Shown: positions 258 to 24,701, counted from the stretch's first letter. The stretch: DNA of 30,575 bases from a virus (IMGVR_UViG_3300032280_000594), one strand, 5' to 3'. Notes: generated by a model from the letters alone, not told the origin. Numbers and translations are program-made.

Positions 258-488
258 TTAATCTTCGTCAACACATTTAGGTTGTAAATACTTATCTACG
301 ATTTTCCCAATTAAGTCTGGTGCATCGATTAAAGTATTATCATTTTGAGCTATACCTTCCCAACAACTAGAAACATAGTGGTCTGGATGTTCCATCCACT
401 TAATAATTTCATTAAGAATTGCGTCTGCCACTTCGGGAGTGTACTGAATAACGTATTCATTACTTCCTATTTTAATTTGTTTTGTCAT
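258..488 (-). CDS. hypothetical phage protein
   Basis: 76 aa ORF, 4-nt overlap with upstream gene in a tightly packed minus-strand run. Confidence 0.75.
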   Translation of the reverse strand: MTKQIKIGSNEYVIQYTPEVADAILNEIIKWMEHPDHYVSSCWEGIAQNDNTLIDAPDLIGKIVDKYLQPKCVDED

Positions 489-781
489 ATAATTTTATTT
501 AATTGTTGTTCTCTCCAATCTTCTATGTTCATAAATAGGTTTGCAGGTAGCCACCCTTGTTTTGAGGGTCCACCATCGGCACGAAAGTTTTTTAAGATAA
601 CTGCATCTATAAGTTCGCTACTTTCAACATCAATAAAAACTTTACCTACCATATTTTCCACTTCATATATCTTACCAACTTCTAGCCAGTCAAAAGTTAC
701 CGGTTCGTGTTCACCTGTTAAAGCCACTCCTTTAGAGTGGAATTCAACGGTGGTTGTATTAGAAATACAAATTAGGTTCAT
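485..781 (-). CDS. small SH3-like beta-barrel family protein with C-terminal R-x-x-K/Q-L helix
   Basis: xCI...LEVGKIYEV...F...EDWREQQLNKII; same pattern as 5813, 8669, 9289, 13191. Confidence 0.75.
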   Translation of the reverse strand: MNLICISNTTTVEFHSKGVALTGEHEPVTFDWLEVGKIYEVENMVGKVFIDVESSELIDAVILKNFRADGGPSKQGWLPANLFMNIEDWREQQLNKII

Positions 782-996
782 TAGTAAGTATCTAAAAGTT
801 CTACTTCACCATAAGTTTGGTAAATATAATCTTGTGCTTCTTGTACATTTTTAAATTCTGCTTCATAGGTCCAGTCGTCTTGATAAGCTTCTCCACCCTC
901 AAATTCGTCTAACCATAAAGTTACTCCACCTTTAACCTCTTGAATAGCAAATCCTAAATCTGTATTTGTTTTTGATTTGTAAATTGTAATTGTCAT
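781..996 (-). CDS. hypothetical phage protein
   Basis: 71 aa acidic ORF, stop/start coupled with neighbours. Confidence 0.75.
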   Translation of the reverse strand: MTITIYKSKTNTDLGFAIQEVKGGVTLWLDEFEGGEAYQDDWTYEAEFKNVQEAQDYIYQTYGEVELLDTY

Positions 997-997
997 A

Positions 998-1333
998 TTA
1001 TTTATTTAAAAATTTTTGGTATTTGTTGTAAACTTGAACTACATCTTTTGCTCTTACTGGTCTCAAGCTATCGATTTCTTTTTGAGTACCAATGTCTGTA
1101 AGTTGTACGTCACCAAATCTAGTTCTTAGTTCATAGTAGGTACTATCATCTGATACTTCAACGATTGGTCCGTCGCTGGAGTTTTCATAGATAAACTTTT
1201 GTTCGGTTGACGCCGGGAAAGTATCTTGTGTTAAAGTTGGGTTAGAATAATGATTACTGATCATTACAGATAAAATAATCGCCACTACAAGTATTGTAGC
1301 AATTACTAATTTTTGAATAGTTTGTTTTGTCAT
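998..1333 (-). CDS. single-pass membrane protein
   Basis: N-terminal hydrophobic helix LVIATILVVAIILSVMI; start moved to 1333 (MTKQ) because TATATTTG promoter motif lies at 1352-1359. Confidence 0.75.
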   Translation of the reverse strand: MTKQTIQKLVIATILVVAIILSVMISNHYSNPTLTQDTFPASTEQKFIYENSSDGPIVEVSDDSTYYELRTRFGDVQLTDIGTQKEIDSLRPVRAKDVVQVYNKYQKFLNK

Positions 1334-1351
1334 ATTTTTAGTTTTGAATAA

Positions 1352-1359
1352 CAAATATA
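1352..1359 (-). promoter_or_regulatory. Bacteroidota-type -7 promoter element TATATTTG
   Basis: matches TAnnTTTG, intergenic, heads minus-strand run 1333->1. Confidence 0.65.
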
Positions 1360-1388
1360 CAAATTATTTTTTAGAAACAAATAAATTT

Positions 1389-1397
1389 TTATATATA
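1389..1397 (+). promoter_or_regulatory. putative late promoter variant TTATATATA
   Basis: 4 nt upstream of ATG 1402; one mismatch to recurrent TAATATATA. Confidence 0.45.
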
Positions 1398-1401
1398 TGT
1401 T

Positions 1402-2868
1402 ATGAGAAAAAAGAAGATACTAATAGGTATTACGACATTCAATGAATCGTATCAACCGACCAGTTTTCATTTTAAGGTAGATGAAACTGGAGAAAGAATC
1501 TATGATGATCATAGATTAAATATAGTTCAAGAGAACTTAAAAACCATTTATAATATGATTGATGATGTTAGAATAATGTCAAATATAAACATATTAGACA
1601 TTCAGAGTAATATAAATGTTAAAACTGTTCCTAATCCTACTACTGAAATAATTGGATTATTTGCATCAAAAATGTTTGAATCAATTGGTGTATTTTTTAT
1701 GGCAGGAACTCCAGCGGGTATTATCGCAACAATTGTAGGTAAACTAGTAAGTGCAATAATTACAACAGCTTGTAGAGCAGCATCTGGTGATGCAACAAAT
1801 GATATTCAGAGAGCGGTTAATGATATTAAAAATTGTATGAATGCGATCTTTAATGAAATACAAGTAAGGGTTACACATTGGTTACAAAATATGGAATTAG
1901 AGTGGAATAAAGTTTATCATTGTAATGGTGATTTAGTTCCTGAAATGAAAGGTGATGTAACACTTAGTGATTTAGGTAATTGTGATTGGTTTTTCCCGAA
2001 GAAAGGGGAGTCAGAAGATTATATTACTATTCGTAACTTTCTAACTAAAAAATGTAACTATTTAATTACTCGTGATTTACTTCCAGTTAAATGGAAAATA
2101 AAACAATGTTACAGAGCCTTTCCATCTGATGGGTTTGGAAATTTATTATCTGGATGGAATACTTGTTGGTATAAAGTACGTAATAGAAGTACTTGGGATA
2201 GTTGGTGTTCACATTCTGATTTTCCTAATAGCATACCTAGTAATTTAAGAGGTGATATAGAAGGCCCATTTGAAGACATCGAAAAAGGAAGTAATTATGA
2301 TACAGATGCAAATGGTAATATTTATTATTATCAATGGTGGCCAAAGTGGAATGGTTTAGATGGACCTCGTTATAATTGGGCTAATGAAACACCTCGTTGG
2401 ACGAATTGGTCTGGTAAGAGCGATAGAGTTGAGAAACCAAATCAGGATATAGTATCAGGTACTTCATTCTTAGATTTTATTAAAGATATATTAGATGGAC
2501 ATTATTTTGCAGATACATTGGTATCAGGTTCATTCCCAAATGAACCATCATACTTTTTATGGTATGAAACAAAAAGACCTAATGAGAATGTAAAAATTAT
2601 AAATGATAAAAGAAAATGGACATTACTAAGTAATGAAGCTTGTAAAGACATTGTTTATGATAGTAATAGTATATTCACTTGGGGTAGAGCTTATAGAGGA
2701 ATTAAACTAAATCATTATTACTTAGTTGATGAAAAAGGCGATTATGCACCAAGTGTTTTTTGTGATTGGTTATTCTCGGATGATGGTCATGGTAATATAA
2801 AAAATGAAAATGGTATAGCTGGTAAAATTGATGTTTATATGAATTGGGGATTATCAAAAGTAAATTAA
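1402..2868 (+). CDS. 488 aa Trp/Cys-rich hypothetical protein with internal hydrophobic hairpin
   Basis: Long ORF; hydrophobic segment IGVFFMAGTPAGIIATIVGKLVSAII followed by amphipathic helices; no family recognised. Confidence 0.85.
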   Translation: MRKKKILIGITTFNESYQPTSFHFKVDETGERIYDDHRLNIVQENLKTIYNMIDDVRIMSNINILDIQSNINVKTVPNPTTEIIGLFASKMFESIGVFFMAGTPAGIIATIVGKLVSAIITTACRAASGDATNDIQRAVNDIKNCMNAIFNEIQVRVTHWLQNMELEWNKVYHCNGDLVPEMKGDVTLSDLGNCDWFFPKKGESEDYITIRNFLTKKCNYLITRDLLPVKWKIKQCYRAFPSDGFGNLLSGWNTCWYKVRNRSTWDSWCSHSDFPNSIPSNLRGDIEGPFEDIEKGSNYDTDANGNIYYYQWWPKWNGLDGPRYNWANETPRWTNWSGKSDRVEKPNQDIVSGTSFLDFIKDILDGHYFADTLVSGSFPNEPSYFLWYETKRPNENVKIINDKRKWTLLSNEACKDIVYDSNSIFTWGRAYRGIKLNHYYLVDEKGDYAPSVFCDWLFSDDGHGNIKNENGIAGKIDVYMNWGLSKVN

Positions 2869-2871
2869 ATT

Positions 2872-2900
2872 AAAGTGTCGAATTTATCGACACTTTTTTT
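2872..2900 (+). terminator. intrinsic terminator
   Basis: AAAGTGTCGA/TCGACACTTT 10-bp stem, 5-nt loop, T-tract. Confidence 0.85.
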
Positions 2901-2908
2901 AATATATA
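2900..2908 (+). promoter_or_regulatory. putative late promoter TAATATATA
   Basis: 4 nt upstream of ATG 2913. Confidence 0.65.
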
Positions 2909-2912
2909 AGTT

Positions 2913-3362
2913 ATGAGAACAATTAAATTATTTGAGGATTTTAATACTCCGCAAGATTTCATAAAGGAGTTAAAAGATTTCTGTGAAATGTATTTAGCTT
3001 ATTTAATAGACGAAGGATTTGAAGTAAAAGTCACCGAAGAGAAAGGTGATACTTATGTATTAGATATAGAAAAAGTTTCAGTATATGCTAATTATACAGT
3101 TGGTAATTACGGAGTACGTAATATTGATAATAGTTTTAAATGGGGTGAAGTAGTAGATCATTTTATACCATTTTATCAAATGTTATCAAGAGAATATAAC
3201 TTAGTAAAAAGTGTAAGAGAACCATATGGAACTATAAATCTTAGACAAGAAATGACACTTGGTAGGAGAGTTGGATGGATTTGGAAAAATTATACAGGTG
3301 TAGAAGATTTAGATCCAGATACAAAGATTGATAAAATACAAATACCAATAAAAGCAAAATGA
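2913..3362 (+). CDS. putative virion internal protein, LxDFCExYLAYLxD paralog family
   Basis: Leader MRTIKLFEDFN; core LKDFCEMYLAYLIDEGF...WGEVVDHFIPF shared with 4048 and 7935. Confidence 0.8.
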   Translation: MRTIKLFEDFNTPQDFIKELKDFCEMYLAYLIDEGFEVKVTEEKGDTYVLDIEKVSVYANYTVGNYGVRNIDNSFKWGEVVDHFIPFYQMLSREYNLVKSVREPYGTINLRQEMTLGRRVGWIWKNYTGVEDLDPDTKIDKIQIPIKAK

Positions 3363-4542: not shown

Positions 4543-4549
4543 CTTCTTC

Positions 4550-4861: not shown

Positions 4862-4880
4862 ACTTTTAATTTTATAACTA

Positions 4881-4888
4881 CAAATATA
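4881..4888 (-). promoter_or_regulatory. Bacteroidota-type -7 promoter element TATATTTG
   Basis: TAnnTTTG match upstream of 4861; second copy at 4907-4914. Confidence 0.6.
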
Positions 4889-5792: not shown

Positions 5793-5812
5793 TATTTAAA
5801 CAAATGTATAAT

Positions 5813-6247
5813 ATGATACTAAAATGTATAACTCATGACTTTCCAGGTAGAGTTACTTATGGAAAAGAATATAAAGTAATTGAAGAGAAAAAGTGTTCTT
5901 ACTATATAGTTGATGATAACAATAAAGTAGCTACCGTAACCAATAATAAATACTTTATTGATTTGGTAGAATGGAGAGAAAAACAAATAGAAAAAATAAT
6001 AAGAAATAATATGAGTCATTTAGAAGGTTACAATCAGTATTTAGTAAGCAATGCAAACACATTACTTAACTATATACAAGAAAATAATGTTGAATATAAC
6101 ATATCAAGTTTAGTTGAGTTGATAGATAATATAAACAACTCGCTTGGAGATAAGTTAGATTTCTATGCCGAGCAGCTAGATAGGACTATTGCAATAGCAC
6201 AACTCGACTTTGGATACATTCATAGTAGGGAACATTCGGTTCACTAA
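5813..6247 (+). CDS. SH3-like family domain fused to a helical C-terminal domain
   Basis: LKCI...VTYGKEYKV...F...VEWREKQIEKII then continues RNNMSHLEG...; start could be 5804. Confidence 0.75.
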   Translation: MILKCITHDFPGRVTYGKEYKVIEEKKCSYYIVDDNNKVATVTNNKYFIDLVEWREKQIEKIIRNNMSHLEGYNQYLVSNANTLLNYIQENNVEYNISSLVELIDNINNSLGDKLDFYAEQLDRTIAIAQLDFGYIHSREHSVH

Positions 6248-7118: not shown

Positions 7119-7403
7119 TTAGACTCCTAAATCTTCTAACTTTTGATTTCTAATTTCTTGTAAAACAAAAGCTTCTATTCCTTCCAACTCAACTAATTCT
7201 TTGGAATGTTTTATTCCGGTTTTATCAATTACAATAGTGTAAACACAATCATCTTTGGTGAAAGATATAAGTTTCACTTCACCATTATTTATACCACCAT
7301 ATCTTGATTTTACTATCTGTTTATTGGATGTTCCACTTAATTTATTGTCAATAAATTCCAATAAAATTGGTGCAGTTTCTTCGGTAAGCCAATTATAAAT
7401 CAT
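7119..7403 (-). CDS. hypothetical protein with C-terminal R-x-x-K-L helix
   Basis: ends QEIRNQKLEDLGV*. Confidence 0.75.
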   Translation of the reverse strand: MIYNWLTEETAPILLEFIDNKLSGTSNKQIVKSRYGGINNGEVKLISFTKDDCVYTIVIDKTGIKHSKELVELEGIEAFVLQEIRNQKLEDLGV

Positions 7404-8435: not shown

Positions 8436-8648
8436 ATGAGTTACGTTATAGATTTTGGTGGTACGATAATGGAAGTTCCCTTAACATTTTTTAAAAATAA
8501 TTTGAATTATAAGATTGTTAAACACGATCTTATAGGTGATACACACTTTATAAATTATGGTGGAATAACTATTAGTGTTCACGATAATATTTTGAAGAAA
8601 GTTCAAATAGATTTAAGAGATTCAAAAATAGATAGTATATTAGAATAA
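8436..8648 (+). CDS. hypothetical protein with C-terminal R-x-x-K-I helix
   Basis: ends IDLRDSKIDSILE*. Confidence 0.75.
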   Translation: MSYVIDFGGTIMEVPLTFFKNNLNYKIVKHDLIGDTHFINYGGITISVHDNILKKVQIDLRDSKIDSILE

Positions 8649-8668: not shown

Positions 8669-8881
8669 ATGATAGTAGTATGTATAAACGATAAATTAGC
8701 TGGTTTCACTTACGGTAGAATCTACCGTGTCACAGTCAAAGATGATATTTATGGCTCAGGTTTACATTGGGTTATTTCTGATTCTGGTTTAGGTAGAGGT
8801 GTTTTTTTAAGAAACTCTTTTATGACTATTGACGAGTGGAAAATGGCAATAAAAAAAGAAAGTTATAATGATTTTATATGA
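8669..8881 (+). CDS. small SH3-like beta-barrel family protein
   Basis: MIVVCIND...FTYGRIYRV...SFMTIDEWK. Confidence 0.7.
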   Translation: MIVVCINDKLAGFTYGRIYRVTVKDDIYGSGLHWVISDSGLGRGVFLRNSFMTIDEWKMAIKKESYNDFI

Positions 8882-9263
8882 TATAGATAGTGATGAAATT
8901 ATTAAGGTATTAAGGTTTGACTATGTGGAGATTCTATATTTTACTATAAGTCGTAATGAAATGACAAATATATCTTTTGATGTAGGAGAATCTGCGTGTG
9001 AGTATATTAAGGATTGGTATTTAGAAAGTTTACCAGGTGGTAAACTACGTTATGCTTCAGAATATAAACGTGATTTATATATTACTGACTTAAAAGATAA
9101 ACAAATTAAACTAATAAATTGTTTTATAAAATCAGTTGATGATAAAGATACATTTCTTACTGTTGAAATATATTGTGATAACTATATTATTGGTGATTCT
9201 ACTACCTTCCCTGAATTAAAATCACTTTATCGAAATGCAGTTTTATCAGGTTTAGGAATATAA
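8868..9263 (+). CDS. degenerate T4 gp19-like tail-tube-fold protein with C-terminal R-x-x-x-L-x-x-LGI helix
   Basis: ESACEYIKDWY...GKLRYASEYKRDLYI...KLINCFIKSV...LTVEIYCD resembles, by eye, the tail tube core of T4-like jumbo phages; ends YRNAVLSGLGI*. Confidence 0.5.
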   Translation: MILYDIDSDEIIKVLRFDYVEILYFTISRNEMTNISFDVGESACEYIKDWYLESLPGGKLRYASEYKRDLYITDLKDKQIKLINCFIKSVDDKDTFLTVEIYCDNYIIGDSTTFPELKSLYRNAVLSGLGI

Positions 9264-9290
9264 AAAAAGAGAACTAATGTTCTCTTTTTT
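9262..9290. terminator. bidirectional intrinsic terminator
   Basis: AAAAAGAGAAC-taat-GTTCTCTTTTT between convergent genes. Confidence 0.85.
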
Positions 9291-9543
9291 ATTTTAATAT
9301 GTCATTAAGTTTCTCGTCTCTTATTTCGGCTTCTGTTTTTAGGTATTTACTTTTGTGTGGACAAAGTCCTGTGCCAAACTTAACTAAGTACCAACCATCA
9401 ACACGATTTTCTGTTTCAATTAAAACATCATAAGTTTCACCTTCGATAAGAGAACAATTTCCCCATACTCTATCAGTAAACTCAATAGATTCTACACAAA
9501 TCATTTTAATAAATCTAGTCGGGTCTTTAGGAGCTTGCATCAT
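9289..9543 (-). CDS. small SH3-like family protein with C-terminal R-x-x-K-L helix
   Basis: MICVES...LIEGETYDV...AEIRDEKLNDILK*. Confidence 0.75.
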   Translation of the reverse strand: MMQAPKDPTRFIKMICVESIEFTDRVWGNCSLIEGETYDVLIETENRVDGWYLVKFGTGLCPHKSKYLKTEAEIRDEKLNDILK

Positions 9544-9584: not shown

Positions 9585-10199
9585 TTATTTACCAAGTAAA
9601 CTTTTTAAAACATTATCTCTTTTTAATGTTTTTAATTCAGTATCAATAGATTCTCTAACTCTTTCATATCCTACTATTGTTTCACTATAAATTTTTTCGT
9701 GATGTTCTAAGATAAATCCCCATAATTGAGAAAGTATTAGTGTACTTGTTTCTGTATTATCGGTATTATATGATACGCTTCCGTTTGTTTGATATGCAGT
9801 ACCGGCAACAGTTTTTATCACAGTAAATGATCCCAAGTCTACCTTATTATTATACGAATATAATCTACTTCTAACCTTTAAAGTATTCGTAGGATTATTT
9901 AGTTCTATCATATATGATTTTCTATCACTAAGACCATAATTTCTTTCGTTATCAATGGTAACTACCCAATCTTCTAGTTTAATAGATTCTAAAACATCTT
10001 TAAGTAAAGAATGGTCCGTATCAAAATCTTCCCATTTTGGAGTTTCATATTTTGGTATAGGTAAACGTAAGAAATCTTTATCGATTTCTTCGATAACTTT
10101 TTTCTTAGTTAGCGTGTAGTTTTTATAAGCAAAGTAAATTACTACTGCAAATAGTATTAAGTTTATTAAGTATATCATTTTAATTTCTAGTGTTATCAT
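9585..10199 (-). CDS. membrane-anchored protein with C-terminal R-x-x-x-L helix
   Basis: N-terminal TM LINLILFAVVIYFAY; ends LKRDNVLKSLLGK*. Confidence 0.8.
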   Translation of the reverse strand: MITLEIKMIYLINLILFAVVIYFAYKNYTLTKKKVIEEIDKDFLRLPIPKYETPKWEDFDTDHSLLKDVLESIKLEDWVVTIDNERNYGLSDRKSYMIELNNPTNTLKVRSRLYSYNNKVDLGSFTVIKTVAGTAYQTNGSVSYNTDNTETSTLILSQLWGFILEHHEKIYSETIVGYERVRESIDTELKTLKRDNVLKSLLGK

Positions 10200-10588
10200 T
10201 TTAATATTTTTCTAATTTTACGATCTCGTTCTTCTACTTTTTTATTTTCTTCTTCTTCTTTTAGAAAATCTTCATATTCTTTTGTGTTATACATGCTCAT
10301 ATCAGTTTCGTGGTTTGAAATACTTGATAATAAAACAAAGATTATTAGTACAATTGGTATTAAAATTGCAGTAAACCAATCCATTTGTTTGTTATTTATA
10401 GAACAAAGACCTATAAATGCTTGTATTTTCAACCATAATATGAATAATTTCTTCCTATCTATGTTAGATAATCTAGTTTTCACTTTATATTTTGCCATTG
10501 ATGAGAATTTTGTAGAAAAATATATTAGTATAGCAATAATAGAAAGTGGAATAAAAAATAGAAAGAACATAAATATGTTACTTACCAT
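10196..10588 (-). CDS. multi-pass membrane protein with C-terminal R-x-x-K-I helix
   Basis: three hydrophobic segments; ends EERDRKIRKILK*. Confidence 0.8.
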   Translation of the reverse strand: MVSNIFMFFLFFIPLSIIAILIYFSTKFSSMAKYKVKTRLSNIDRKKLFILWLKIQAFIGLCSINNKQMDWFTAILIPIVLIIFVLLSSISNHETDMSMYNTKEYEDFLKEEEENKKVEERDRKIRKILK

Positions 10589-10794
10589 TATTTCCAGAAT
10601 TTATACCACTTCTTCTCCTTTTCGGTATCTCCAAGTAGTGATTTAAGTTTTTCGTCTCTTTTTTCTGCTACTTCACATTTTTTACAAAGATGTTTTTCCA
10701 TGTCGTGATGTAGTGCGTGTCCTGTACTTTCTCCACAATTTTTACAATCGTGTGTTAGCCAAGATGGGTCTGAACCCTCGTGAAAGTGTGCCAT
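10588..10794 (-). CDS. small zinc-ribbon protein with R-x-x-K-L helix and KKWYKFWK tail
   Basis: CKNC...CKKC; AEKRDEKLKSLLG. Confidence 0.75.
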   Translation of the reverse strand: MAHFHEGSDPSWLTHDCKNCGESTGHALHHDMEKHLCKKCEVAEKRDEKLKSLLGDTEKEKKWYKFWK

Positions 10795-10798
10795 ATTA

Positions 10799-11047
10799 TT
10801 ATTCTAAAATTAAATTTAATTTATATTCTCTACTAAATGCTTTTATTTCGTTATAAGGTATTTTTCTAAACTTTGAAGCGTGTTTTATTCTACCATCTTC
10901 TGTATGATAGTAAATTTGTTTTCTTTTTTTACTTTGACCGATAATAGCAACTAATTCATTATCTAAATATAGATAATTTGGAACACCTAGTTTTTCTAAT
11001 GTTCTCCAGTAATCTCCTTGTAAAGTTAAATGTGTTTCTGTATTATT
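10799..11047 (-). pseudogene. 82-codon open frame lacking an ATG (start lost or non-canonical)
   Basis: Hand-translated NNTETHLTLQGDYWRTLEKLGVPNYLYLDNELVAIIGQSKKRKQIYYHTEDGRIKHASKFRKIPYNEIKAFSREYKLNLILE*; fills operon gap exactly. Confidence 0.6.
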
Positions 11048-11466: not shown

Positions 11467-12651
11467 TTATGTTCTCCAATCTGGTTCACCATCAGTTGAG
11501 TCTAATTCCGCATAAGGTCTTTGAAATATTTGACTATTTGATAATTTACCTTCATCTGCATCATAGTATGTGAATGTATCCATATAAGGATAAAGTTCAT
11601 AATCTTTGGCTTTAACATTCACTACACTACTATTTACTATAGTTTTTGAGTAACCATTTTTGATAGCCCATTTTAAGAATAAATTATCATAACTATCTTT
11701 ACTGGTATAGACACGATCCATATATTTTTTGCCATCGGACAGTGTCCATAAAAGAGCTCGGCCTCTTAGCTCATTGTAATCATTTAAGTATATAAGCATT
11801 TTACATACTTCTGGATTTTGTACATATATATCAAAAAAGTCTTGACAATTAGAATATCTCATGCAAGAATTTGAAAGTTGACCTGATGATCCACCTTCAT
11901 AATATTTTTGATGATACCATTTTCTAATTTCTTCTCCTTCTATAATTTTAAAACTATCAAAAGCATTATTTCTAAGAATAACTTCTGCCTCATATAAGTT
12001 TACAAATTTTTCTATAGTCACTGCTGAATATGTTTTACCAATCGCGGCTATAAATTTATTAAGAAATCTTCCTAATCTAACATCAGATTTTCTTGTAGAG
12101 ATAGATCCATTTGGCTCGATTGGATTTTTAATACCATTACTTGTTCTAGTAGAACTATAAACCAGTGCATATCTACCTGGTATGTTAGCATCTTCTAAAT
12201 AAAAAAAGTTTAAATGACTCCAATTTTCTGAGGTTGGATTTTTTATAACTTTCCAACTATCTGCTAATAATCCTCTTATATCACCACCTATAAGTCCTTC
12301 ACCTGGAACATCTAATTCCTTAAATAGTACATGTGGACTAGATGGTTCATAACCTAGAACGTTTGCACTTGTTAGAACACGATAAGTTATTTCTTCTTCT
12401 TTTATTTTATCTTCTGGAATAAATGAAACCATACCTGGTTTATCAGATACATCAATACAATTGGAATCAATGTTAACATCTTTACTTACATAATCTCTTA
12501 TTAAAGAAGCTAGGTCTGCAACATCATTCTGATCATTAGTTGATAAAACGTCTAGTATTTCAATAAAATCTGTTCCAAATATCATCTTACCTTCTAAAAT
12601 AAGGTTATATATCTGTTTTTCTAATATAAATTCGTAGTATTTGTTCACCAT
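11467..12651 (-). CDS. putative virion-packaged enzyme, SCM/GRALLW/YPYMDT family (paralog of 15694..17034)
   Basis: Leader MVNKYYEFILE; motifs SFIPEDK, GRFLNK, KFVNLY, GEEIRKWY, SCMRY, GRALLW, MDRVY, YPYMDT. Confidence 0.85.
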   Translation of the reverse strand: MVNKYYEFILEKQIYNLILEGKMIFGTDFIEILDVLSTNDQNDVADLASLIRDYVSKDVNIDSNCIDVSDKPGMVSFIPEDKIKEEEITYRVLTSANVLGYEPSSPHVLFKELDVPGEGLIGGDIRGLLADSWKVIKNPTSENWSHLNFFYLEDANIPGRYALVYSSTRTSNGIKNPIEPNGSISTRKSDVRLGRFLNKFIAAIGKTYSAVTIEKFVNLYEAEVILRNNAFDSFKIIEGEEIRKWYHQKYYEGGSSGQLSNSCMRYSNCQDFFDIYVQNPEVCKMLIYLNDYNELRGRALLWTLSDGKKYMDRVYTSKDSYDNLFLKWAIKNGYSKTIVNSSVVNVKAKDYELYPYMDTFTYYDADEGKLSNSQIFQRPYAELDSTDGEPDWRT

Positions 12652-12689: not shown

Positions 12690-13007
12690 TTAATAAAGAT
12701 CTTCTGAGAAAAGTAATCCTTTTAAATCTTTTGTTTGACCCATATCAAATGCAATTTGTGCAGCTTCTTTACGATCAACAAATCTATTTTTTGATGTCAG
12801 AAATCCTTGCACATGACTACCTGCACCATCCGGTGCATGAGTAACAGTTCTTAAACCTTTTAAAGATAGTAGTGTGTAAATACATTGTCCATGTCTATGA
12901 CCAAGTATGACCACACCGGAATCACAATTGACTGGTAATGATTGTTTTATTTCATTTTCTAAATCTAAGTACCAGATTGCGGCACATAATATATACTCTT
13001 TATCCAT
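12690..13007 (-). CDS. conserved phage hypothetical protein
   Basis: ILCAAIWY...GHRHGQC...QGFLTSKNRFVDRKEAAQIA pattern familiar from phage hypotheticals. Confidence 0.8.
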   Translation of the reverse strand: MDKEYILCAAIWYLDLENEIKQSLPVNCDSGVVILGHRHGQCIYTLLSLKGLRTVTHAPDGAGSHVQGFLTSKNRFVDRKEAAQIAFDMGQTKDLKGLLFSEDLY

Positions 13008-13011
13008 TTAA

Positions 13012-13019
13012 CAAAGATA
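13012..13019 (-). promoter_or_regulatory. Bacteroidota-type -7 promoter element TATCTTTG
   Basis: 4 nt upstream of ATG 13007. Confidence 0.6.
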
Positions 13020-13048
13020 AACATTTTTTAGAAATAACATATAATTGT

Positions 13049-13207
13049 ATGGAATTAATTTTAAGAGGAGTTTTATGTAAAATTTCGGATAAACCACATA
13101 ATGGTCGAATATATCCTAAAAATGTATTTGATAGTCATCTTATGAATTATAAACGTAATAGAAGAAAAATAAAAATAAAATCATTATTTAATGAAAGTAA
13201 ATCTTGA
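13049..13207 (+). CDS. 52 aa mini-protein resembling the N-terminus of T4 gp21-type prohead protease
   Basis: MELILRGVLCKISDKPHNGRIYPKNVFDSHLMNYKRNRRKIKIKSLFNESKS; NGRIYPKxV motif; internal ATG chosen over 12938. Confidence 0.55.
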   Translation: MELILRGVLCKISDKPHNGRIYPKNVFDSHLMNYKRNRRKIKIKSLFNESKS

Positions 13208-13445
13208 GAAAGTTATCTGTATAAAAAATACCTTAAAGATTGATGATGAGATATTAGTAAATGATATGGTACAGGTCGGTAAAATATATGATATGGAACG
13301 CATCTTATATACTGATGAAAATGCATGGGACTTATGGAATTGTTATATATATGATGGTGAGAATATTTGGAGATTACCCTTAGAATTTTTTGAATCTTTA
13401 GATGAGTACCGAAACAAAAAAATAAATAATATTTTAAAATTATGA
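13191..13445 (+). CDS. small SH3-like family protein with C-terminal R-x-x-K-I helix
   Basis: VICIKN...VQVGKIYDM...FFESLDEYRNKKINNILKL*. Confidence 0.8.
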   Translation: MKVNLEKVICIKNTLKIDDEILVNDMVQVGKIYDMERILYTDENAWDLWNCYIYDGENIWRLPLEFFESLDEYRNKKINNILKL

Positions 13446-15693: not shown

Positions 15694-17034
15694 ATGAGAA
15701 TTAAAAAATATTCAGATTTCTTATTAGAATCTCAACTAATATACAAGGATGAGTTTAAAAGCATACTTTATGCTATTAGAAATGATGAGCCTGGTTCACC
15801 TGAGAGTAAAGTAGCAAGTATTTTATTGGAACTTTCTGTTGTTGAATTAGATTTAGTACACAATTATATAAAGGATGTTACAACACCGGGTTTAGTTTCT
15901 TTTATTCCAGAAGATAAAATAAATTTTAATAAAGTTTCAATTGAGCAACACAGAATTGTTACAAAAACAAGTATTCTTAGTGCTTATGGTATTTCAAAGG
16001 ATGGACTAATAAATAATGAGGAAATTAGTTTAATAGGTACAAATGACTTTCCAAATGATTTTAAATTGATTAAAACAATAGATACTGATCTTGTAGAATT
16101 AGAGGATGAGATGTATAGATTAGAAGGCTATTATTTATATTATTTACAAAGTAATTCACATCCTGATAGATTTGTGACTGTTTATAGAAATGTTAATGAT
16201 GGTGATACTCAATCCATATATCCTTATGAGATACCAGAAAATAGAAGAGGTGAAGTTAAAATAGGTAGATTTGTAAATAAACTAATTGATATTTATAAGA
16301 AAAGTGGAAATGATTTAAGTATTGTTGATAATATTACTGCATCAGATGTTGAGAAATTTGTAAATGCTTATACTGCAAGAATATTATTTGAAGAAAGTGC
16401 TTTTAGTAGATTTGAAATAGTTAAAGGTGAAGAAATTAAAAAATGGTATCACGAGTCAAATTATGCTGGTCAACGTGGACAGTTAAATAGTTCTTGTATG
16501 AGATTTGGTAGATGTCAAGATTTTTTTAAAATTTATACAGAGAATCCAGAGGTTTGTCAATTACTAATTCTTAAAGATGAAACTGGTAAAAAGATTGAGG
16601 GAAGAGCTCTTCTTTGGACAACTGTTGATGGTAAAAAATTTATGGATCGTATTTATACTACTAAAGATAGTTTGGTAAAACTATTTGCTAAATGGGCAGA
16701 AGATAACTCTTATATAAATAAAGGTCAAGAAACACATAATTATAGAACACCTTTACTAGACACTATTATTGTTCAAGTAAAACCTAAACTTTATCCAAAA
16801 TATCCTTATATGGATACTTTAATTGATTATGTACCAGATAAAGGAATTTTATGTAATAGAATTGATGTTGAAACTTTAATGAAGTTTCCAGATATTAGAA
16901 AGAAAACCAGAATAGAAGATTTCAAAAAATTCTTTAGTAGAAAAAAAGATGGTAGTGCACACTTTAGTATTGATGGTAAAGATATTACCATTTATAAATT
17001 AAACGATGTTGGTGGTGGTTATGGATTATATTAA
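15694..17034 (+). CDS. putative virion-packaged enzyme, SCM/GRALLW/YPYMDT family (paralog of 11467..12651)
   Basis: Leader MRIKKYSDFLLES; SFIPEDK, GRFVNK, GEEIKKWY, SCMRF, GRALLW, MDRIY, YPYMDT. Confidence 0.85.
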   Translation: MRIKKYSDFLLESQLIYKDEFKSILYAIRNDEPGSPESKVASILLELSVVELDLVHNYIKDVTTPGLVSFIPEDKINFNKVSIEQHRIVTKTSILSAYGISKDGLINNEEISLIGTNDFPNDFKLIKTIDTDLVELEDEMYRLEGYYLYYLQSNSHPDRFVTVYRNVNDGDTQSIYPYEIPENRRGEVKIGRFVNKLIDIYKKSGNDLSIVDNITASDVEKFVNAYTARILFEESAFSRFEIVKGEEIKKWYHESNYAGQRGQLNSSCMRFGRCQDFFKIYTENPEVCQLLILKDETGKKIEGRALLWTTVDGKKFMDRIYTTKDSLVKLFAKWAEDNSYINKGQETHNYRTPLLDTIIVQVKPKLYPKYPYMDTLIDYVPDKGILCNRIDVETLMKFPDIRKKTRIEDFKKFFSRKKDGSAHFSIDGKDITIYKLNDVGGGYGLY

Positions 17035-17063: not shown

Positions 17064-17852
17064 TCAGTCAAATAACATTTTGTCAACATCGTTATAAAGA
17101 TCTTCTAATGCCATTACTAATTTTTGTAAATCACCTCTATAAAATCCTGAACAGTTTACACAGTTTATCTCTACAATTTTCCAACCATCTGGAGTTAAAC
17201 AGATGTCCATTACAAATGCTGGAGCAACTTTATAAAGATCAACCATTCTCTGAGCGAATTCTAGACCCTCTGGTTCAACATCTTCTGTCCAAACTACATT
17301 TTCATTAAACTTATAGTATGAACTCGTTACAATCTTTCCATCGACGATCCATATTCTTGCCTCTTTATAAATTTTCTTAGGTGATGTAACTTGAATAGTA
17401 ACTGGTGGCATTACACCTAAATACTTTTCTTTAACCATTTGAACAGTGTCCTCCCATTTGATTTTACTATAAAGTTTCCCATTAAACACTTTACTATCTT
17501 TACTTGGTCGAATGAATTTAACTTCATTAGGTTCCCAAACAATTGGATCTGCAATGTCTTTTAGTAAGCTATCATAGTTTAAAAGATTTTTTCTGTAATG
17601 ATCTTTATAGATTTGAAAGTCATGATTTTTTCCATAGAAAGAACCAGGTGTCCATTCCATTTGAGTTGCTAGTCTAGCCGCTCTAACAGAGCCAAATACA
17701 AATACATCTTTGCAGCGATTCATTAGTTTATTGAACTCACCGTTCTTATCGAACCTGAGTATCTCGTACGGTAGTTTAAGACGTTTCATAGTCTCAAATA
17801 TTTTATCATAGTTTTCTTCTCGGAAAACGTTTTCTTGTATTACATAAAACAT
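17064..17852 (-). CDS. ATP-grasp ligase, R2K/DUF4343-like clade
   Basis: FVFGSV, KFIRPSKDSKVFNG, EARIWIVDGKIVTSSYY, AFVMDIC...WKIVEINCVNCSGFY. Confidence 0.8.
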   Translation of the reverse strand: MFYVIQENVFREENYDKIFETMKRLKLPYEILRFDKNGEFNKLMNRCKDVFVFGSVRAARLATQMEWTPGSFYGKNHDFQIYKDHYRKNLLNYDSLLKDIADPIVWEPNEVKFIRPSKDSKVFNGKLYSKIKWEDTVQMVKEKYLGVMPPVTIQVTSPKKIYKEARIWIVDGKIVTSSYYKFNENVVWTEDVEPEGLEFAQRMVDLYKVAPAFVMDICLTPDGWKIVEINCVNCSGFYRGDLQKLVMALEDLYNDVDKMLFD

Positions 17853-18556: not shown

Positions 18557-19578
18557 ACATTGACGTTCAAAAGGTTTTAAAATCTTTTGAGATTTCACAG
18601 TGGTCGCACAAAACAAACTTTGACCTAGTAAAAAATCTACCTGTTATAACCAGAGAAGATCTTCGCAAAATTAAACAACAACCTGGACTTTATATATCAA
18701 AGACTTCTGGGTCAACTGGTGAACCTGTTACTATCCAAAAAACTTATCAAGATTATGTTTTATACTTAGCAACTAATATAAGAGAATTAAGATGGAGAAA
18801 ATGGGATTTTAGTAAGAACTTGGCAATTATAAAAGCAAGATCCAATAAAGAAGATAAAATAGGTTGGGGTGTACCTTATAATTTAGAACCAAAACAAGGT
18901 ATGACATTTAAAATTGGACTTGAACCTATATCTGTTTTGCAAAAATGGTTAGAGGAAAAAAATCCACATTACTTACATTGTCCACCTTCTATTGTTGATC
19001 AATTGGACTTATCAAAGATTACTAATCTAATAGATGTTAAAGGAACTGGTGAGAAAGGTGGTACTATGTATTCAAGTGAAGAGTGTGGTACAATCGCTAT
19101 TCAATGTCCTGATAATAAGGAGGTTTATCATGTAATGGAAAACATTATTGTTGAATGTGATGAAGAAGGAGCTATAATTGTTAGTAATTTAACAAATCCT
19201 TATGTGAGAAGATATAAACACGGTGATCATATTGAGTTAGGAGAATGTAATTGTGGTAGAACTTTACAAACAATTAAAAAAATTCATGGTAGAGTTAGAA
19301 ATATGTTAGTTTTACCAAATGGAGATAAGAAATGGCCATTATTTGGAACAAGAGATATACATGAGACATTCAATATAAAAAGATTTAAAGTTATTCAAAC
19401 CACTTTAAGTGATTTAGAAGTACAGATAATTGCAGATAAATTAAGTTCAGAAAAAACTGATGAATTTATTAGATTGATAATAGATTCAGTTGGTGAACCA
19501 TTAAACGTAACGATTAAGTATGTTGAATCTTTCCCAAATTATAAGTTTGAAGAGTTTGTAAGTTTATTAAATTCCTAA
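18535..19578 (+). CDS. PaaK/CapK-like adenylate-forming (ANL superfamily) enzyme
   Basis: TSGSTGEP P-loop, YSSEECGTIAIQCP, RYKHGD, GRVRNM, C-terminal KFEEFVS. Confidence 0.8.
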   Translation: MEISKQLDIDVQKVLKSFEISQWSHKTNFDLVKNLPVITREDLRKIKQQPGLYISKTSGSTGEPVTIQKTYQDYVLYLATNIRELRWRKWDFSKNLAIIKARSNKEDKIGWGVPYNLEPKQGMTFKIGLEPISVLQKWLEEKNPHYLHCPPSIVDQLDLSKITNLIDVKGTGEKGGTMYSSEECGTIAIQCPDNKEVYHVMENIIVECDEEGAIIVSNLTNPYVRRYKHGDHIELGECNCGRTLQTIKKIHGRVRNMLVLPNGDKKWPLFGTRDIHETFNIKRFKVIQTTLSDLEVQIIADKLSSEKTDEFIRLIIDSVGEPLNVTIKYVESFPNYKFEEFVSLLNS

Positions 19579-19726
19579 TTTTCTTAGTGTCATTTCTCGT
19601 TTTACTTGTTTAAATGTTTCTTCTTTTTAATTTTGAGTATTCTATTTAATTTAATGTCTTCTCCACAACAATCATGTTGCAGATTTAATTCTTGAGAACA
19701 TTGTCTCGGATTATTACTTTTCCCAT
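19567..19726 (-). pseudogene. probable degraded small gene ending in KREMTLRKLGI*
   Basis: Promoter motif at 19756-19763, ATG 19726 gives only MGKVIIRDNVLKN*; another frame ends KEETFKQVKREMTLRKLGI* without a start. Confidence 0.4.
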
Positions 19727-19998: not shown

Positions 19999-20006
19999 TA
20001 TATTTG
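19999..20006 (+). promoter_or_regulatory. Bacteroidota-type -7 promoter element TATATTTG
   Basis: upstream of likely start 20034. Confidence 0.55.
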
Positions 20007-20033
20007 TTATATAATTATATAAAATTATATGAT

Positions 20034-20525
20034 ATGAATAATATTGAGAAAAATCAATTTCAACAAATACTTAATTACTTAATAGAAACTACTAAGGATG
20101 GCACCAGAGAATGGAAGCTATCTAACCATATGTTTAATAGTGATACTAGGTATCATATGGAATCATTTTCTGATGATGGTAAAACCAGATTTGAATCTAC
20201 AATTAAACTAGATTACGATAATAGTGGTAAATTATTTTATTGTGAACATGGATGTATGACTATTCATAATAAAGGATTTGGTAGTGGTTTTCAAGTATTT
20301 GGATTAAATGACAATAAGAATATCTTAGTTTTAGAAAAGTTAGTGTTCACTAATTTTGTTAGTGCCATTCTACCTACAGTGGCACCAAATAATGTATTTG
20401 ATGATATATTAAGTGGTATGGGTAAACAATATACTCGTGATAAGAAATTAGAGCAGTTATTGGATGGTGTTGAAGTCGAAGTAGAACCAGAAAAGAAAAA
20501 AGGATTTTTAAGTAGAATATTCTAA
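20034..20525 (+). CDS. hypothetical protein with R-x-x-K-L helix and KKGFLSRIF tail
   Basis: QYTRDKKLEQLLDG near C-terminus; start moved from 20004. Confidence 0.8.
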   Translation: MNNIEKNQFQQILNYLIETTKDGTREWKLSNHMFNSDTRYHMESFSDDGKTRFESTIKLDYDNSGKLFYCEHGCMTIHNKGFGSGFQVFGLNDNKNILVLEKLVFTNFVSAILPTVAPNNVFDDILSGMGKQYTRDKKLEQLLDGVEVEVEPEKKKGFLSRIF

Positions 20526-20550
20526 ACCGTATTTTAATACGGTTTTTTTT
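20524..20550 (+). terminator. intrinsic terminator
   Basis: AAACCGTATT/AATACGGTTT inverted repeat then T-tract. Confidence 0.85.
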
Positions 20551-20557
20551 ATATATA
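20549..20557 (+). promoter_or_regulatory. putative late promoter variant TTATATATA
   Basis: 5 nt upstream of ATG 20563. Confidence 0.5.
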
Positions 20558-20562
20558 TGGTT

Positions 20563-21369: not shown

Positions 21370-21370
21370 T

Positions 21371-21799: not shown

Positions 21800-21944
21800 A
21801 AAATAGTAAGAACACTATTTACGCTGTGTTTTTATTGCTTCAATTGCGCTGAAACTCGCTATTTTTAAAAAGAACTCACTCCTTTTGTAGTTGTAACCTC
21901 GTATCTATAAACCGTGCCGTTTATCTATCATACTAACCACATAG
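21800..21944 (-). other. promoter-driven ORF-less unit (ncRNA or gene relic)
   Basis: Between TATCTTTG (21945-21952) and hairpin 21801-21820; visibly more GC-rich; all frames interrupted. Confidence 0.35.
21801..21820. terminator. weak intrinsic terminator
   Basis: AAATAGT-aagaac-ACTATTT, A-tract on 5' side (U-tract for minus strand). Confidence 0.5.
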
Positions 21945-21952
21945 CAAAGATA
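21945..21952 (-). promoter_or_regulatory. Bacteroidota-type -7 promoter element TATCTTTG
   Basis: TAnnTTTG in intergenic DNA. Confidence 0.55.
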
Positions 21953-21993
21953 TGAAATAATTCTAATCTACCAAACTTTTAAGATTTTAATTT

Positions 21994-22002
21994 TAATATA
22001 TA
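21994..22002 (+). promoter_or_regulatory. putative late promoter TAATATATA
   Basis: 18 nt upstream of ATG 22021. Confidence 0.65.
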
Positions 22003-22020
22003 AAAGAAAGAAATTTTGTA

Positions 22021-22221
22021 ATGAAATATTTAAAAACATTTGAAAGTCATGCTACTTTTAAACCCGGATCTCTAATCGAGTTTCACGTACCAAATACTGG
22101 TAAAACACATACTGGTAGAATTATTACAATAGAGGATGATTTTATAACAGTTATTGATTTAAAAGATGATAAAGAGCTTAGACTACCAAAAGAAGAATTT
22201 GGACCAGCTTATGAAAATTAA
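22021..22221 (+). CDS. putative virion internal protein, SH3/KOW-like
   Basis: Leader MKYLKTFES; FKPGSLIEF...TGRIITIEDDFITV. Confidence 0.75.
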   Translation: MKYLKTFESHATFKPGSLIEFHVPNTGKTHTGRIITIEDDFITVIDLKDDKELRLPKEEFGPAYEN

Positions 22222-22226
22222 ATAAA

Positions 22227-22253
22227 GGCCAGTGAACTTCACTGGTTTTTTTT
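22227..22253 (+). terminator. intrinsic terminator
   Basis: CCAGTGA/TCACTGG stem then T-tract. Confidence 0.8.
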
Positions 22254-22283
22254 ATATAATAATTTGAACTAAAATCAATTTAT

Positions 22284-22508
22284 ATGTTAGTAAGATGTAA
22301 AAAAACTGTAGATGGTATCACAATGGGTAGATACTATGAGTTTAAATGGTATACTGGTAATAACCATGCGGTTATTGTAAATAATAGATTTCAATTGATT
22401 GCTTATCCAGTTGAGTATTTTCATTTCTTTGAAGATAAAAAATCTAAAGAAGTAATGTACGACAACTTACGTGCTATGTTAAAAAGTAAAACATTTTTTA
22501 CGGTATAA
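22284..22508 (+). CDS. small SH3-like beta-barrel family protein
   Basis: MLVRCKK...ITMGRYYEF...YPVEYF. Confidence 0.7.
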   Translation: MLVRCKKTVDGITMGRYYEFKWYTGNNHAVIVNNRFQLIAYPVEYFHFFEDKKSKEVMYDNLRAMLKSKTFFTV

Positions 22509-22512
22509 TTTT

Positions 22513-22521
22513 TAATATATA
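22513..22521 (+). promoter_or_regulatory. putative late promoter TAATATATA
   Basis: 4 nt upstream of ATG 22526. Confidence 0.65.
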
Positions 22522-22525
22522 AAGA

Positions 22526-23332
22526 ATGAAATATATTAAATCATTCAACGAAGAGTTAAGACCTCATATTTATAAAAATGCTGCCGATAAGTTAAGACAA
22601 AATTATGGTCATCACAAAAGAGCTGATAAACTAGCTAGTTATGCTGATGAACTTTATAATAAACAAACACAAGCAAGAATAGAAAATAATCGTCAAAGAT
22701 GTTCTAAGTACGGAGCATTTAAAGGGAAATTAAAAGTTCAAACTCGTGATAACAATTGGCGTGTTACAAATGAAACCATTATAGAAGGTAATTTCTACAT
22801 AAGTCTTTGGTTTGATGATGATTGGTTTAGTGATATGATACGTGAGTCTTGGATTGCCGAAGGTTTTCAATATGCGTGTGCCTTACCATTTGATTTTGAT
22901 ATAATGCCAGCAGATGAAGAAACTCAACAAAAGGTTGATGAAACAGGTTGTGAACAGAATGATGGTTTAATTTATTGTAATAGATTAGAAATGTCTTATA
23001 TAAGTCGTCAACCTGATCAAGATTATATTGTAGATCCTAAAGGGTTTAGTTTTTATGATAGAGATCAAGATACTGCTTTTTACTTTTCTACTAGAGCAGA
23101 TGCTTTAAGATTTAAAAGATTATTTGTTGGTGCAATTTTAGGTGAAAATGATTTCGGTGTAAATCATAATTGGATTAAGCATCCAACTTTAAAAGAACAT
23201 ATAAAGGCTACCTTAGAAAGACAAGATTGTGTAACTGATGATGGTGTTCTTATGATCGATCCAGAAGAAGATCTTATTAAGTTACAAAATTCTGCTAAAA
23301 TAATGTCTTTAAATATTTTGTATAAGGATTAG
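22526..23332 (+). CDS. putative virion internal protein (capsid-targeting-like leader)
   Basis: Leader MKYIKSFNEE; 268 aa, no family recognised. Confidence 0.85.
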   Translation: MKYIKSFNEELRPHIYKNAADKLRQNYGHHKRADKLASYADELYNKQTQARIENNRQRCSKYGAFKGKLKVQTRDNNWRVTNETIIEGNFYISLWFDDDWFSDMIRESWIAEGFQYACALPFDFDIMPADEETQQKVDETGCEQNDGLIYCNRLEMSYISRQPDQDYIVDPKGFSFYDRDQDTAFYFSTRADALRFKRLFVGAILGENDFGVNHNWIKHPTLKEHIKATLERQDCVTDDGVLMIDPEEDLIKLQNSAKIMSLNILYKD

Positions 23333-23338
23333 TTTTCA

Positions 23339-23346
23339 TATCTTTG
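23339..23346 (+). promoter_or_regulatory. Bacteroidota-type -7 promoter element TATCTTTG
   Basis: 4 nt upstream of ATG 23351. Confidence 0.6.
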
Positions 23347-23350
23347 TAAT

Positions 23351-23734
23351 ATGAAAAAAATTATATTACTATTCTTATTACTAAACACAAATTGTTTTTC
23401 TCAACCGAGTTCAGACGTGTCCTACACAGGATACACTGAGAGAGATGAAATTATACTTTCTATAAATCCGGTAAATAATTGTGAACTTCGTTATGACTTT
23501 TATCCAAATTATGATGCTTACTATGATAGAAAAGAAGAAGTTTATCTTGTCTTTGAAAAAGGTACTTGGACAAAAGTAGACTACATAAATCCAAACTATC
23601 GTGGCTATTCTATTTATAATAATACACATTATGTCATTAAGGATTATGATGGTGATGATATAACTGAAATGTATCCAATTCATAAGAAATTTTTCCCATA
23701 TGTAACTAGGAAAACATTATTAAAAGAATGGTAA
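23351..23734 (+). CDS. secreted Tyr-rich hypothetical protein
   Basis: Signal peptide MKKIILLFLLLNTNCFS|Q. Confidence 0.8.
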   Translation: MKKIILLFLLLNTNCFSQPSSDVSYTGYTERDEIILSINPVNNCELRYDFYPNYDAYYDRKEEVYLVFEKGTWTKVDYINPNYRGYSIYNNTHYVIKDYDGDDITEMYPIHKKFFPYVTRKTLLKEW

Positions 23735-24003
23735 GAGATAAAGTATATAAAGAATTTAATGTAGGTGATGAAGTTTATACACATAAGGTTACTTGGAAAG
23801 CAATTACTGCCAATAAACCTTATATCGTATTAGCTTGTTATAAACCAGATGGTTATGTAGATGATTATCCTGTTAGAGTTATTGACATTAAAACTGATAA
23901 AGGTTTTATATCTAGATATGCAACTGACAAATTTCACAAAACTGATACACAGATTAGACAAGATAAGATAAATTCAATACTCAATGACAATACGACAATA
24001 TAA
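23728..24003 (+). CDS. small SH3-like family protein with R-x-x-K-I helix
   Basis: FNVGDEVY...ITANKPYIV...TQIRQDKINSILND. Confidence 0.8.
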   Translation: MVRDKVYKEFNVGDEVYTHKVTWKAITANKPYIVLACYKPDGYVDDYPVRVIDIKTDKGFISRYATDKFHKTDTQIRQDKINSILNDNTTI

Positions 24004-24316
24004 AAAGAAATACTTTATTTGTAAAGATGATTTCGGAAAAATGATTTACTTAGGTGATACTGTTGAGGTATGGATGCCATGTGAAACAAAACCATATCAA
24101 TCTTGTGTTTATTGGAATAGATTAGATGGTGCTTTCATTGATGGACATCCTGCTCATGTTAAAATGGGTCATTCTAGTCATAGAAGTTTAAACGCATTTT
24201 TTATGAGAAATAGTCCACCTGTTCCTATTTATGATTCATTTGATGATGATGCTGTACCTACTTGGCATCAAGGTTATGTTAAGAAAGTAAAATCATTTTA
24301 TGAAGGAGAAGATTAA
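23984..24316 (+). CDS. YopX-like phage protein
   Basis: KDDFGKMIYLGDTVEV resembles YopX KDKNGKEIYEGDIV motif. Confidence 0.55.
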   Translation: MTIRQYKKKYFICKDDFGKMIYLGDTVEVWMPCETKPYQSCVYWNRLDGAFIDGHPAHVKMGHSSHRSLNAFFMRNSPPVPIYDSFDDDAVPTWHQGYVKKVKSFYEGED

Positions 24317-24701
24317 GCAAATTTTTACTGAATTAGTTGAGTCTATTGAGGTTAATGGTTATTATAGGAATGTTAGAAAGATAGAGGTTAATACTGAACG
24401 TGATAGTATTTATATCTTCTTTACTGACTTTAGAAATAATGATGAGTCTGCACCAGAAATAGATTTAGGTGATAAAGTACATAATAAATGGTATTTTAGA
24501 CTTTATAATAAAATTATTGAAGAATATACCAATTCTGATGAGGATTATTTGGCAATGATTGATAATTATACCACTATAAATTTTTACACTGACTGGTTCA
24601 AAAGATTAGAATATGACGTAAATACTTTATATTTACGAGTAAATCTAACAGAACTTACTGGATTTATTAGAGATAAAAAGATTTCAAAATTATTAGAATA
24701 A
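24300..24701 (+). CDS. hypothetical protein with C-terminal R-x-x-K-I helix
   Basis: ends GFIRDKKISKLLE*. Confidence 0.8.
   Translation: MKEKIKQIFTELVESIEVNGYYRNVRKIEVNTERDSIYIFFTDFRNNDESAPEIDLGDKVHNKWYFRLYNKIIEEYTNSDEDYLAMIDNYTTINFYTDWFKRLEYDVNTLYLRVNLTELTGFIRDKKISKLLE

Follow-up and report, generated by a model that had tools for sequence, protein, structure and literature searches.

A portable C-terminal helix tag, and candidate docking label, on unrelated small proteins of one megaphage clade

Roughly a fifth of the genes on the viral DNA stretch IMGVR_UViG_3300032280_000594 (30,575 nucleotides, analysed whole and referred to here as the window) encode small, otherwise unrelated proteins that end in a helix tag with the core R-x-x-K-L-x-x-[LI]. 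The tag is a real, strongly selected and portable C-terminal helix, and most likely it is a docking label for one shared partner. The window has a G+C content of 28%, and 56 genes were called in it with a simple in-house caller, the majority encoding fewer than 150 amino acids. A preliminary description had listed 16 tag peptides. All 16 are found in the window sequence, but the coordinates quoted with them are those of open reading frame (ORF) ends or starts rather than of the motif, whose true positions are given with each carrier below. Eleven of the 16 end 0-2 residues ahead of the stop codon, three stand at distances of 5-6, 13 and 19 residues, one is internal and followed by 81 residues, and one is a relic in a 9-codon ORF.

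The strict pattern R-[DENQ]-x-x-[LI]-x-x-[LI]-[LIG] matches 16 times in 57 window genes, where per-protein shuffles give an expectation of 0.43 and a maximum of 3 matches in 2000 shuffles. Within six residues of the C-terminus the count is 11, against 0.02 expected. This pattern was derived from the same window data, and an independent check was made on a relative, LR756502, a genome of 642,428 bp from a freshwater lake (PMC9723777). There, 37 of 296 genes end in [LIMV]-G-[IVL], where 1 is expected. The 37 proteins chosen by that ending alone have, counted from the end, Arg at -10 in every case, Leu at -6 in 35 and Lys at -7 in 26. Because the set was chosen without reference to Arg or Leu, the worry over a data-derived pattern is removed. 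Codons differ among the window copies, with Arg encoded by AGA, CGA or CGT and Leu/Ile by TTA, CTT, ATA or ATT; the tag is therefore not a DNA repeat, and conservation acts at the peptide level, as had been proposed.

In a 150-kb portion of LR756502 the C-terminal tag occurs on 90 of 296 genes, an N-terminal leader described below on 50, and both on one. A DNA pattern for R...L..L-G-[IV]-stop finds 40 matches in LR756502 against 1 in the reversed control, clustered at 4-50 kb on the plus strand and 568-640 kb on the minus strand. In a second genome, LR745206 (634,780 bp), 102 genes were called in the first 50 kb, and 21 of them carry the tag. By comparison, Bacillus phage G (30% G+C), LR756500 (24%) and LR756501 (32%) yield one DNA-pattern match each per whole genome, the level of the reversed control, and no C-terminal strict match within 50 kb. 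The preliminary description had held that equal frequency in unrelated AT-rich proteomes would deprive the motif of meaning; these AT-rich huge phages are without it, and the tag is restricted to one megaphage clade. A broader DNA pattern for the IL[KEN] variant was set aside as too unspecific, with 187 matches against 98 in the control.

The tag is present in the syntenic metagenome contigs L001, L009, L011 and L012 and in a different region of a more distant relative, L010. Across eight orthologue families it is 84% identical, against 77% for the bodies, with synonymous changes within the tag. The bodies, clustered by BLASTP at E <1e-3, are diverse: the window's clade has 25 distinct bodies among 65 tagged proteins, and LR756502 has 87 clusters among its 90. 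At that threshold no homology of the bodies outside the tag makes them a single paralogous family, and a few carry distinct Pfam domains. Sequence features in the window set apart a single-pass membrane protein, a protein with transmembrane-like (TM-like) segments and an acidic linker, a CxxC...CxxC protein and several beta-rich proteins. Of the body types named in the preliminary description, the membrane and zinc-ribbon ones are borne out; the SH3-like label rests on a low-confidence model. Pfam and PHROGs searches with the window's tagged proteins returned nothing above threshold. On the tagged proteins of LR756502, Pfam recognizes a riboflavin kinase domain, a BtpA-like protein, a DUF2158 protein and a zinc ribbon. 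The first of these, at 38954-39598 on the minus strand (L013:38954-39598), has a Flavokinase domain (E 2e-22) followed by a tail of about 85 residues ending in the tag. The kinase domain is of host type, about 30% identical to bacterial RibF, and other phage records contain no counterpart of it.

In the numbering used here the Arg is R1, and residues upstream of it have negative numbers. Among the 90 tags of LR756502, position -1 is I, L, Y or V in 49 (I20, L16, Y7, V6), K4 is present in 62, and the stop falls at +11 in 59. At -2 the residue is often an acidic one, at -4 a Lys or an aliphatic one. R1 is required by the selection pattern in this set of 90 and is independently invariant in the 37 proteins chosen by their [LIMV]-G-[IVL] ending. 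Projected on a helix, R1, K4, L5, L8, L/G9 and the hydrophobic residue at -1 form one stripe, with positions 3, 6 and 7 free. The Eisenberg hydrophobic moment of the tag is 0.22, compared to 0.28 for untagged C-termini, and is low because R and K share a face with the leucines; mean hydrophobicity is -0.22 and net charge about +1. A stripe that mixes basic and hydrophobic residues in this way is more in keeping with a face for protein docking than with a membrane or lipid-binding helix. The L-G-I ending looks like a helix cap. Since L-G-I and I-L-[KEN] endings coexist in each genome, the core R-x-x-K-L-x-x-[LI] is likely the determinant.

In the window, a 98-aa minus-strand gene at 485-781 ends ...EDWREQQLNKII, with the tag at 488-517 and its final residue at the C-terminus. 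The 147-aa product of 5804-6247 (+) holds the internal tag, EWREKQIEKII (5972-6001), followed by an 80-aa second module. In its orthologue on contig L001 (938-2770), the insertion of an IS605-family TnpB gene (1259-2449) falls exactly on the internal tag and divides the gene, with one ORF for each module. Because of this, and because the sequence past the tag opens with Met, 5804-6247 looks like a tagged gene that has fused with the gene following it. The 94-aa product of 7119-7403 (-) ends ...EIRNQKLEDLGV (tag 7122-7154); in four orthologues its tag is 100% identical, against 64% for the body. A 70-aa gene at 8436-8648 (+) ends ...DLRDSKIDSILE (tag 8613-8645), a 131-aa gene at 8868-9263 (+) ends ...LYRNAVLSGLGI (tag 9228-9260), and an 84-aa gene at 9289-9543 (-) ends ...EIRDEKLNDILK (tag 9292-9324). 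Between these, 8669-8881 (+) encodes a 70-aa paralogue of the beta-rich tagged proteins with a decayed tag, EWKMAIKKESYNDFI, a form kept in four relatives.

Next to them lies the gene for a 204-aa membrane-anchored protein (9585-10199, minus strand), whose tag KRDNVLKSLLGK is encoded at 9588-9623. The AlphaFold2 (AF2) model, with a predicted local distance difference test score (pLDDT) of 72, has an N-terminal TM helix and an alpha/beta domain; a C-terminal helix of 53 residues (149-201) follows, with the tag at its end. Foldseek found no match to this model in PDB at E <0.001. Of the 22 aligned members of this family (the window protein and 21 homologues), 21 keep the tag, among them the most distant, 40% identical to the window protein. 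The adjacent 130-aa protein (10196-10588, minus strand) has TM-like hydrophobic segments, an acidic linker and the tag ERDRKIRKILK (10199-10231), invariant in five orthologues. A 68-aa zinc-ribbon-like CxxC...CxxC protein follows (10588-10794, minus strand), with KRDEKLKSLLG at 10630-10662 and then a 13-residue tail; its Pfam zinc-ribbon matches are weak only. The open frame at 10799-11047 (-) ends ...FSREYKLNLILE (tag 10802-10834) and has no ATG, GTG or TTG start in the window. It reads GTT where its orthologues L009:7619-7786 and L012:8305-8493 have ATG, and is either a dying gene or the user of an unusual start. The same frame contains a second tag-like peptide, YWRTLEKLGV, near its N-terminus.

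The weakest member of the set is an 89-aa ORF at 12938-13207 (+), passed over by the gene caller, in which a basic variant, RRKIKIKSLF (13160-13189), stands 5 residues from the end; its L006 and L012 orthologues end RKSKIK[ST]L[LF]. The 84-aa beta-rich protein of 13191-13445 (+) ends ...DEYRNKKINNILKL (tag 13407-13442). Its R74 is invariant among 24 homologues, and its AF2 model, of low confidence (pLDDT 52), shows strands and a helix at 70-82; a search with this family against a viral contig collection gave no match. The relic, KREMTLRKLGI-stop at 19570-19602 (-), stands 9 codons past the preceding stop. It is the remnant of a 97-aa tagged gene, of which L009 has an intact orthologue (15930-16223, minus strand) that ends REMILRKLGI. 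A 173-aa gene at 20004-20525 (+) has TRDKKLEQLLD at 20433-20465 and then a 19-residue charged tail, and is conserved in L009. A 91-aa gene at 23728-24003 (+) has IRQDKINSILN at 23953-23985, 5 residues from its end, and a 133-aa gene at 24300-24701 (+) ends ...FIRDKKISKLLE (tag 24666-24698).

The same genomes encode a separate N-terminal leader, MKYLKRFNE-like, which resembles the capsid-targeting sequence (CTS) of phage T4. The tag had been said never to occur with it, and this proves correct for the window, where no gene carries both. Among the 296 genes in 150 kb of LR756502, a single protein combines the two, compared to about 15 expected (p=6e-8). Leader proteins have the E of [LIVFY]-x-E at residue 9 or 11 in 40 of 64 cases. 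A comparable prohead-protease-type site, [LIV]-x-E ending at -2, precedes 15 of 107 tags and is not consistent. Signal-peptide-like N-termini are not significantly depleted in tagged proteins (2/109 compared to 16/342, p=0.26).

Leader and tagged genes also differ in the DNA ahead of them. In LR756502 the element TAATATATA lies within 70 nt upstream of 34 of 69 leader genes, 26 of 276 other genes and 1 of 128 tagged genes. It is frequent in the region with a tail-sheath-like gene, and is missing from the array's strand throughout a 30-kb tag array (L014). Some 71% of tagged genes start within 10 nt past the previous gene. For LR756502 only, this arrangement suggests that the tagged genes may form a separate temporal class; in the window, tagged genes lie downstream of TAATATATA-headed genes on the same strand. 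The window has the element at 2900, 5247, 6280, 6813, 7921, 15681, 21994 and 22513 on the plus strand and at 26685, 15654, 12666 and 5773 on the minus strand. It stands 13-30 nt upstream of 8 of the 11 window N-leader genes and of a few others. The element is probably a phage promoter and possibly, by analogy with T4 TATAAATA, a late one. A Bacteroidota-type promoter, TAnnTTTG, was considered at the head of the tag arrays and dropped, with 2-3 of 20 found by eye against about 1 expected from a hand estimate.

The reading we favor, tentatively, is that unrelated, fast-evolving accessory proteins of this megaphage clade attach to one shared partner by means of the tag, a portable docking helix some 14 residues long. 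The core h-R-[D/N/E]-x-K-[L/I]-x-x-[L/I]-[L/G]-x-COOH would form the docking helix, its conserved stripe would plug into an acidic and hydrophobic groove of a single cytoplasmic partner, and different activities or targets would reach that partner by way of the variable bodies. Since the tag is specific to the clade, its partner is probably a phage protein. In the membrane-anchored carriers, basic residues follow the TM helix, which by the positive-inside rule would place the tag in the cytoplasm. As to which protein this is, our leading guess is the ClpC-like/ClpP1P2 protease that the phages themselves encode; the tag would then serve as a tether or as a timed degron. A two-ring Clp ATPase of 707-709 aa (AAA, UVR, AAA_2 and D2-small, no Clp_N) is encoded in both LR756502 and LR745206, at L021:238-2361 (about 440.5-442.7 kb of LR756502) and at about 424.5 kb of LR745206. 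Elsewhere, each of the two genomes also encodes two true ClpP paralogues. Two other reader families, PDZ_2 and ParA-type AAA_31, are absent from LR756502. A predicted hetero-complex of the tagged 8436-8648 and 9289-9543 products scored 0.01 (mark 0.32) and counts neither way.

Several points weigh against this reading. Both the partner and its binding to the tag are putative. The link between tag and Clp is weak: Clp genes are widespread among huge phages, phage G encodes ClpP and ClpX but no tag, LR756501 has a Clp ATPase only and LR756500 weak ClpP-like matches only, both without the tag, and the co-occurrence in LR756502 and LR745206 amounts to a single event because these are sister lineages. 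Known Clp degrons (the ssrA tag, the MuA C-terminus RRKKAI, the SspB XB tail) are unstructured, while the tag is predicted to be helical and continuous with a long helix in the 9585-10199 model. The gene calls depend on a simple caller. Body diversity was judged by BLAST alone, remote homology may link the beta-rich subset, and a subset of carriers shares a beta-rich N-terminal signature, 'hhC[IV]', and may be one family.

That last point leads to a different account, in which there is no shared partner and the helix is an inherited fold-capping element of one very divergent gene family. Several carriers do combine a beta-rich body, the 'hhC[IV]' start and a long helix running into the tag, and remote homology in proteins of 70-100 aa would be invisible to BLAST. 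We nevertheless consider this account improbable. The tag occurs on a riboflavin kinase domain, a BtpA-like protein, a 622-aa protein, zinc ribbons and membrane anchors; 87 of the 90 LR756502 bodies are singletons; one carrier has a 35-residue acidic linker ahead of its tag; and if the tag acted only within its own protein, there would be no need for one exposed stripe and an invariant Arg to recur on different folds. About equally doubtful is a self-association handle, with helices pairing, perhaps in antiparallel fashion and with Arg facing the C-terminal carboxylate or the Asp2 of the partner, to give homo- or hetero-oligomers. The short helix with a/d-like Leu/Ile spacing, the conserved R1 and D/E/N2, and the fixed distance from Arg to the C-terminus (stop at +11 in most LR756502 tags) are in keeping with it, as is an 85-aa protein at L009:16204-16461 (-) with two tandem tags (RESKIDQIINN-RDRKINLILNGRNTK). 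But R and K on the leucine face would bring like charges together in a homomeric pair, about 100 proteins with an identical interface would cross-pair indiscriminately, and in the window anything from 0 to 20 residues separates motif position 9 from the terminus. Oligomerization, one of the roles raised in the preliminary description, gained no support, while its picture of a portable module selected as a peptide, on unrelated bodies and exclusive with the N-leader, held up.

A membrane-targeting amphipathic helix of the MinD/FtsA type is very improbable. The tag is C-terminal, basic and hydrophobic, and MinD tails are resembled by the variants RKSKIKSLLG and RRKIKIKSLF. Its hydrophobic moment, however, is below that of untagged C-termini, its mean hydrophobicity is negative, and R and K share the face of the leucines, which is not purely apolar; an invariant Arg and an acidic or amide position 2 are unexpected for lipid binding; and the tag also occurs on proteins already anchored in the membrane. 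Less remote, although still unlikely, is a procapsid cargo-loading signal, by which the helix would mimic the coat-binding C-terminus of a scaffold and load more than 100 proteins into a very large head. The scaffold gp8 of P22 ends ...ETYRKLKAKLKGIR, and its Y292, R293 and K296 contact acidic residues of the coat N-arm, with loss of the last 11 residues abolishing binding (PMC9965877). The tag shares h-R-x-x-K in the last 11 residues with gp8, often with a G-I end. Portable C-terminal cargo peptides exist for HK97-fold shells (PMC7355545), and the T4 CTS-like leader in the same genomes makes heavy protein loading of the head plausible. Against this, the tag profile scores gp8 (residues 280-303) at best -5.4 bits, with the leucines out of register, and gives one chance match only (E 0.94) among PDB sequences. 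The 30-kb tag array lacks, on its strand, the element TAATATATA that precedes so many leader and structural-region genes, the protease site ahead of the tag is not consistent, and the carriers include membrane proteins and an enzyme. A Pfam Phage_capsid search for the capsid protein of these phages gave no match.

The docking reading can also be set beside known systems. The T4 CTS on internal proteins IPI-III and Alt is N-terminal and is cut off by the prohead protease (PMC3012670). Like it, the tag is a short portable peptide common to diverse, fast-evolving and otherwise unrelated phage proteins, but the tag is C-terminal, lacks a consistent cleavage site and is exclusive with the CTS-like leader. 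The gp8 helix (PDB 2GP8; PMC9965877) is a suggestive analogue, with an aromatic or hydrophobic residue, R-x-x-K and G-I near the end, and with basic residues that dock; it differs as a helix-loop-helix with another leucine register and no profile match, on one protein rather than about 100. Encapsulin cargo-loading peptides (PMC7355545) are likewise C-terminal, short and portable, with unrelated cargo and one reader. They have another sequence, and serve few cargo types per system compared to about 100 tagged proteins. Encapsulin cargo peptides are also extended rather than helical. Clp degrons and tethers are C-terminal, basic and aliphatic and work on soluble and membrane proteins, and a Clp machine is encoded in LR756502 and LR745206; they are unstructured, however, and an invariant Arg at ten residues from the end is not among their features.

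A further parallel, with no homology implied, is found in eukaryotic modules. Poxvirus ankyrin/PRANC proteins and cellular F-box and SOCS-box proteins carry modules of about 40 residues read by SCF ligases. There too, a large library of variable binders is joined through one small C-terminal module to a common machine. We know of no phage equivalent. It is a long shot, but the tagged proteins could be a phage substrate-adaptor library, in which each body has its own target and the helix tethers it to ClpC-like/ClpP1P2; such a library would be the bacterial-virus counterpart of the F-box/PRANC logic of targeted degradation.

Full-text literature searches aimed at such a tag found no published description of one. 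Megaphages devote hundreds of genes to small orphan proteins beyond the reach of any annotation method, and one peptide on about 100 of them gives a single experimental handle on the whole set. The hub reached through the tag, whether protease, capsid or other, could explain how much of the accessory genome works. With its reader defined, a portable tag of ten residues would also be of use as a tool, and the tag is a simple sequence marker for a clade of phages above 630 kb.

A megablast search of the window against phage records gave no match. Orthologues of window proteins were found on metagenome contigs reaching 611-640 kb, and a metagenome contig scan gave four short loci. An ATP-grasp R2K protein (17064-17852) has its closest matches in uncultured huge phages. 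The right end of the window encodes a TonB-dependent receptor, a membrane protein and NadR; with NadR as query, a genome contig collection gave no match. Two larger genes, 11467-12651 (-; 394 aa) and 15694-17034 (+; 446 aa), both match the same two LR756502 proteins of 467-474 aa (L014:8491-9894 and L015:23668-25092); their products are probably paralogues, of a family within the tag-rich and leader-rich regions. A radical SAM protein gene at 25121-26020 (+) adjoins a convergent 95-aa gene at 26050-26337 (-), whose product has a Pro/Ala-rich stretch and CGGGGGYQRSSC at its end, and the two may be a peptide-modification pair. At the window edge, a short ORF at 30427-30564 (-) contains the peptide ATFVFKVAIEAVA twice.

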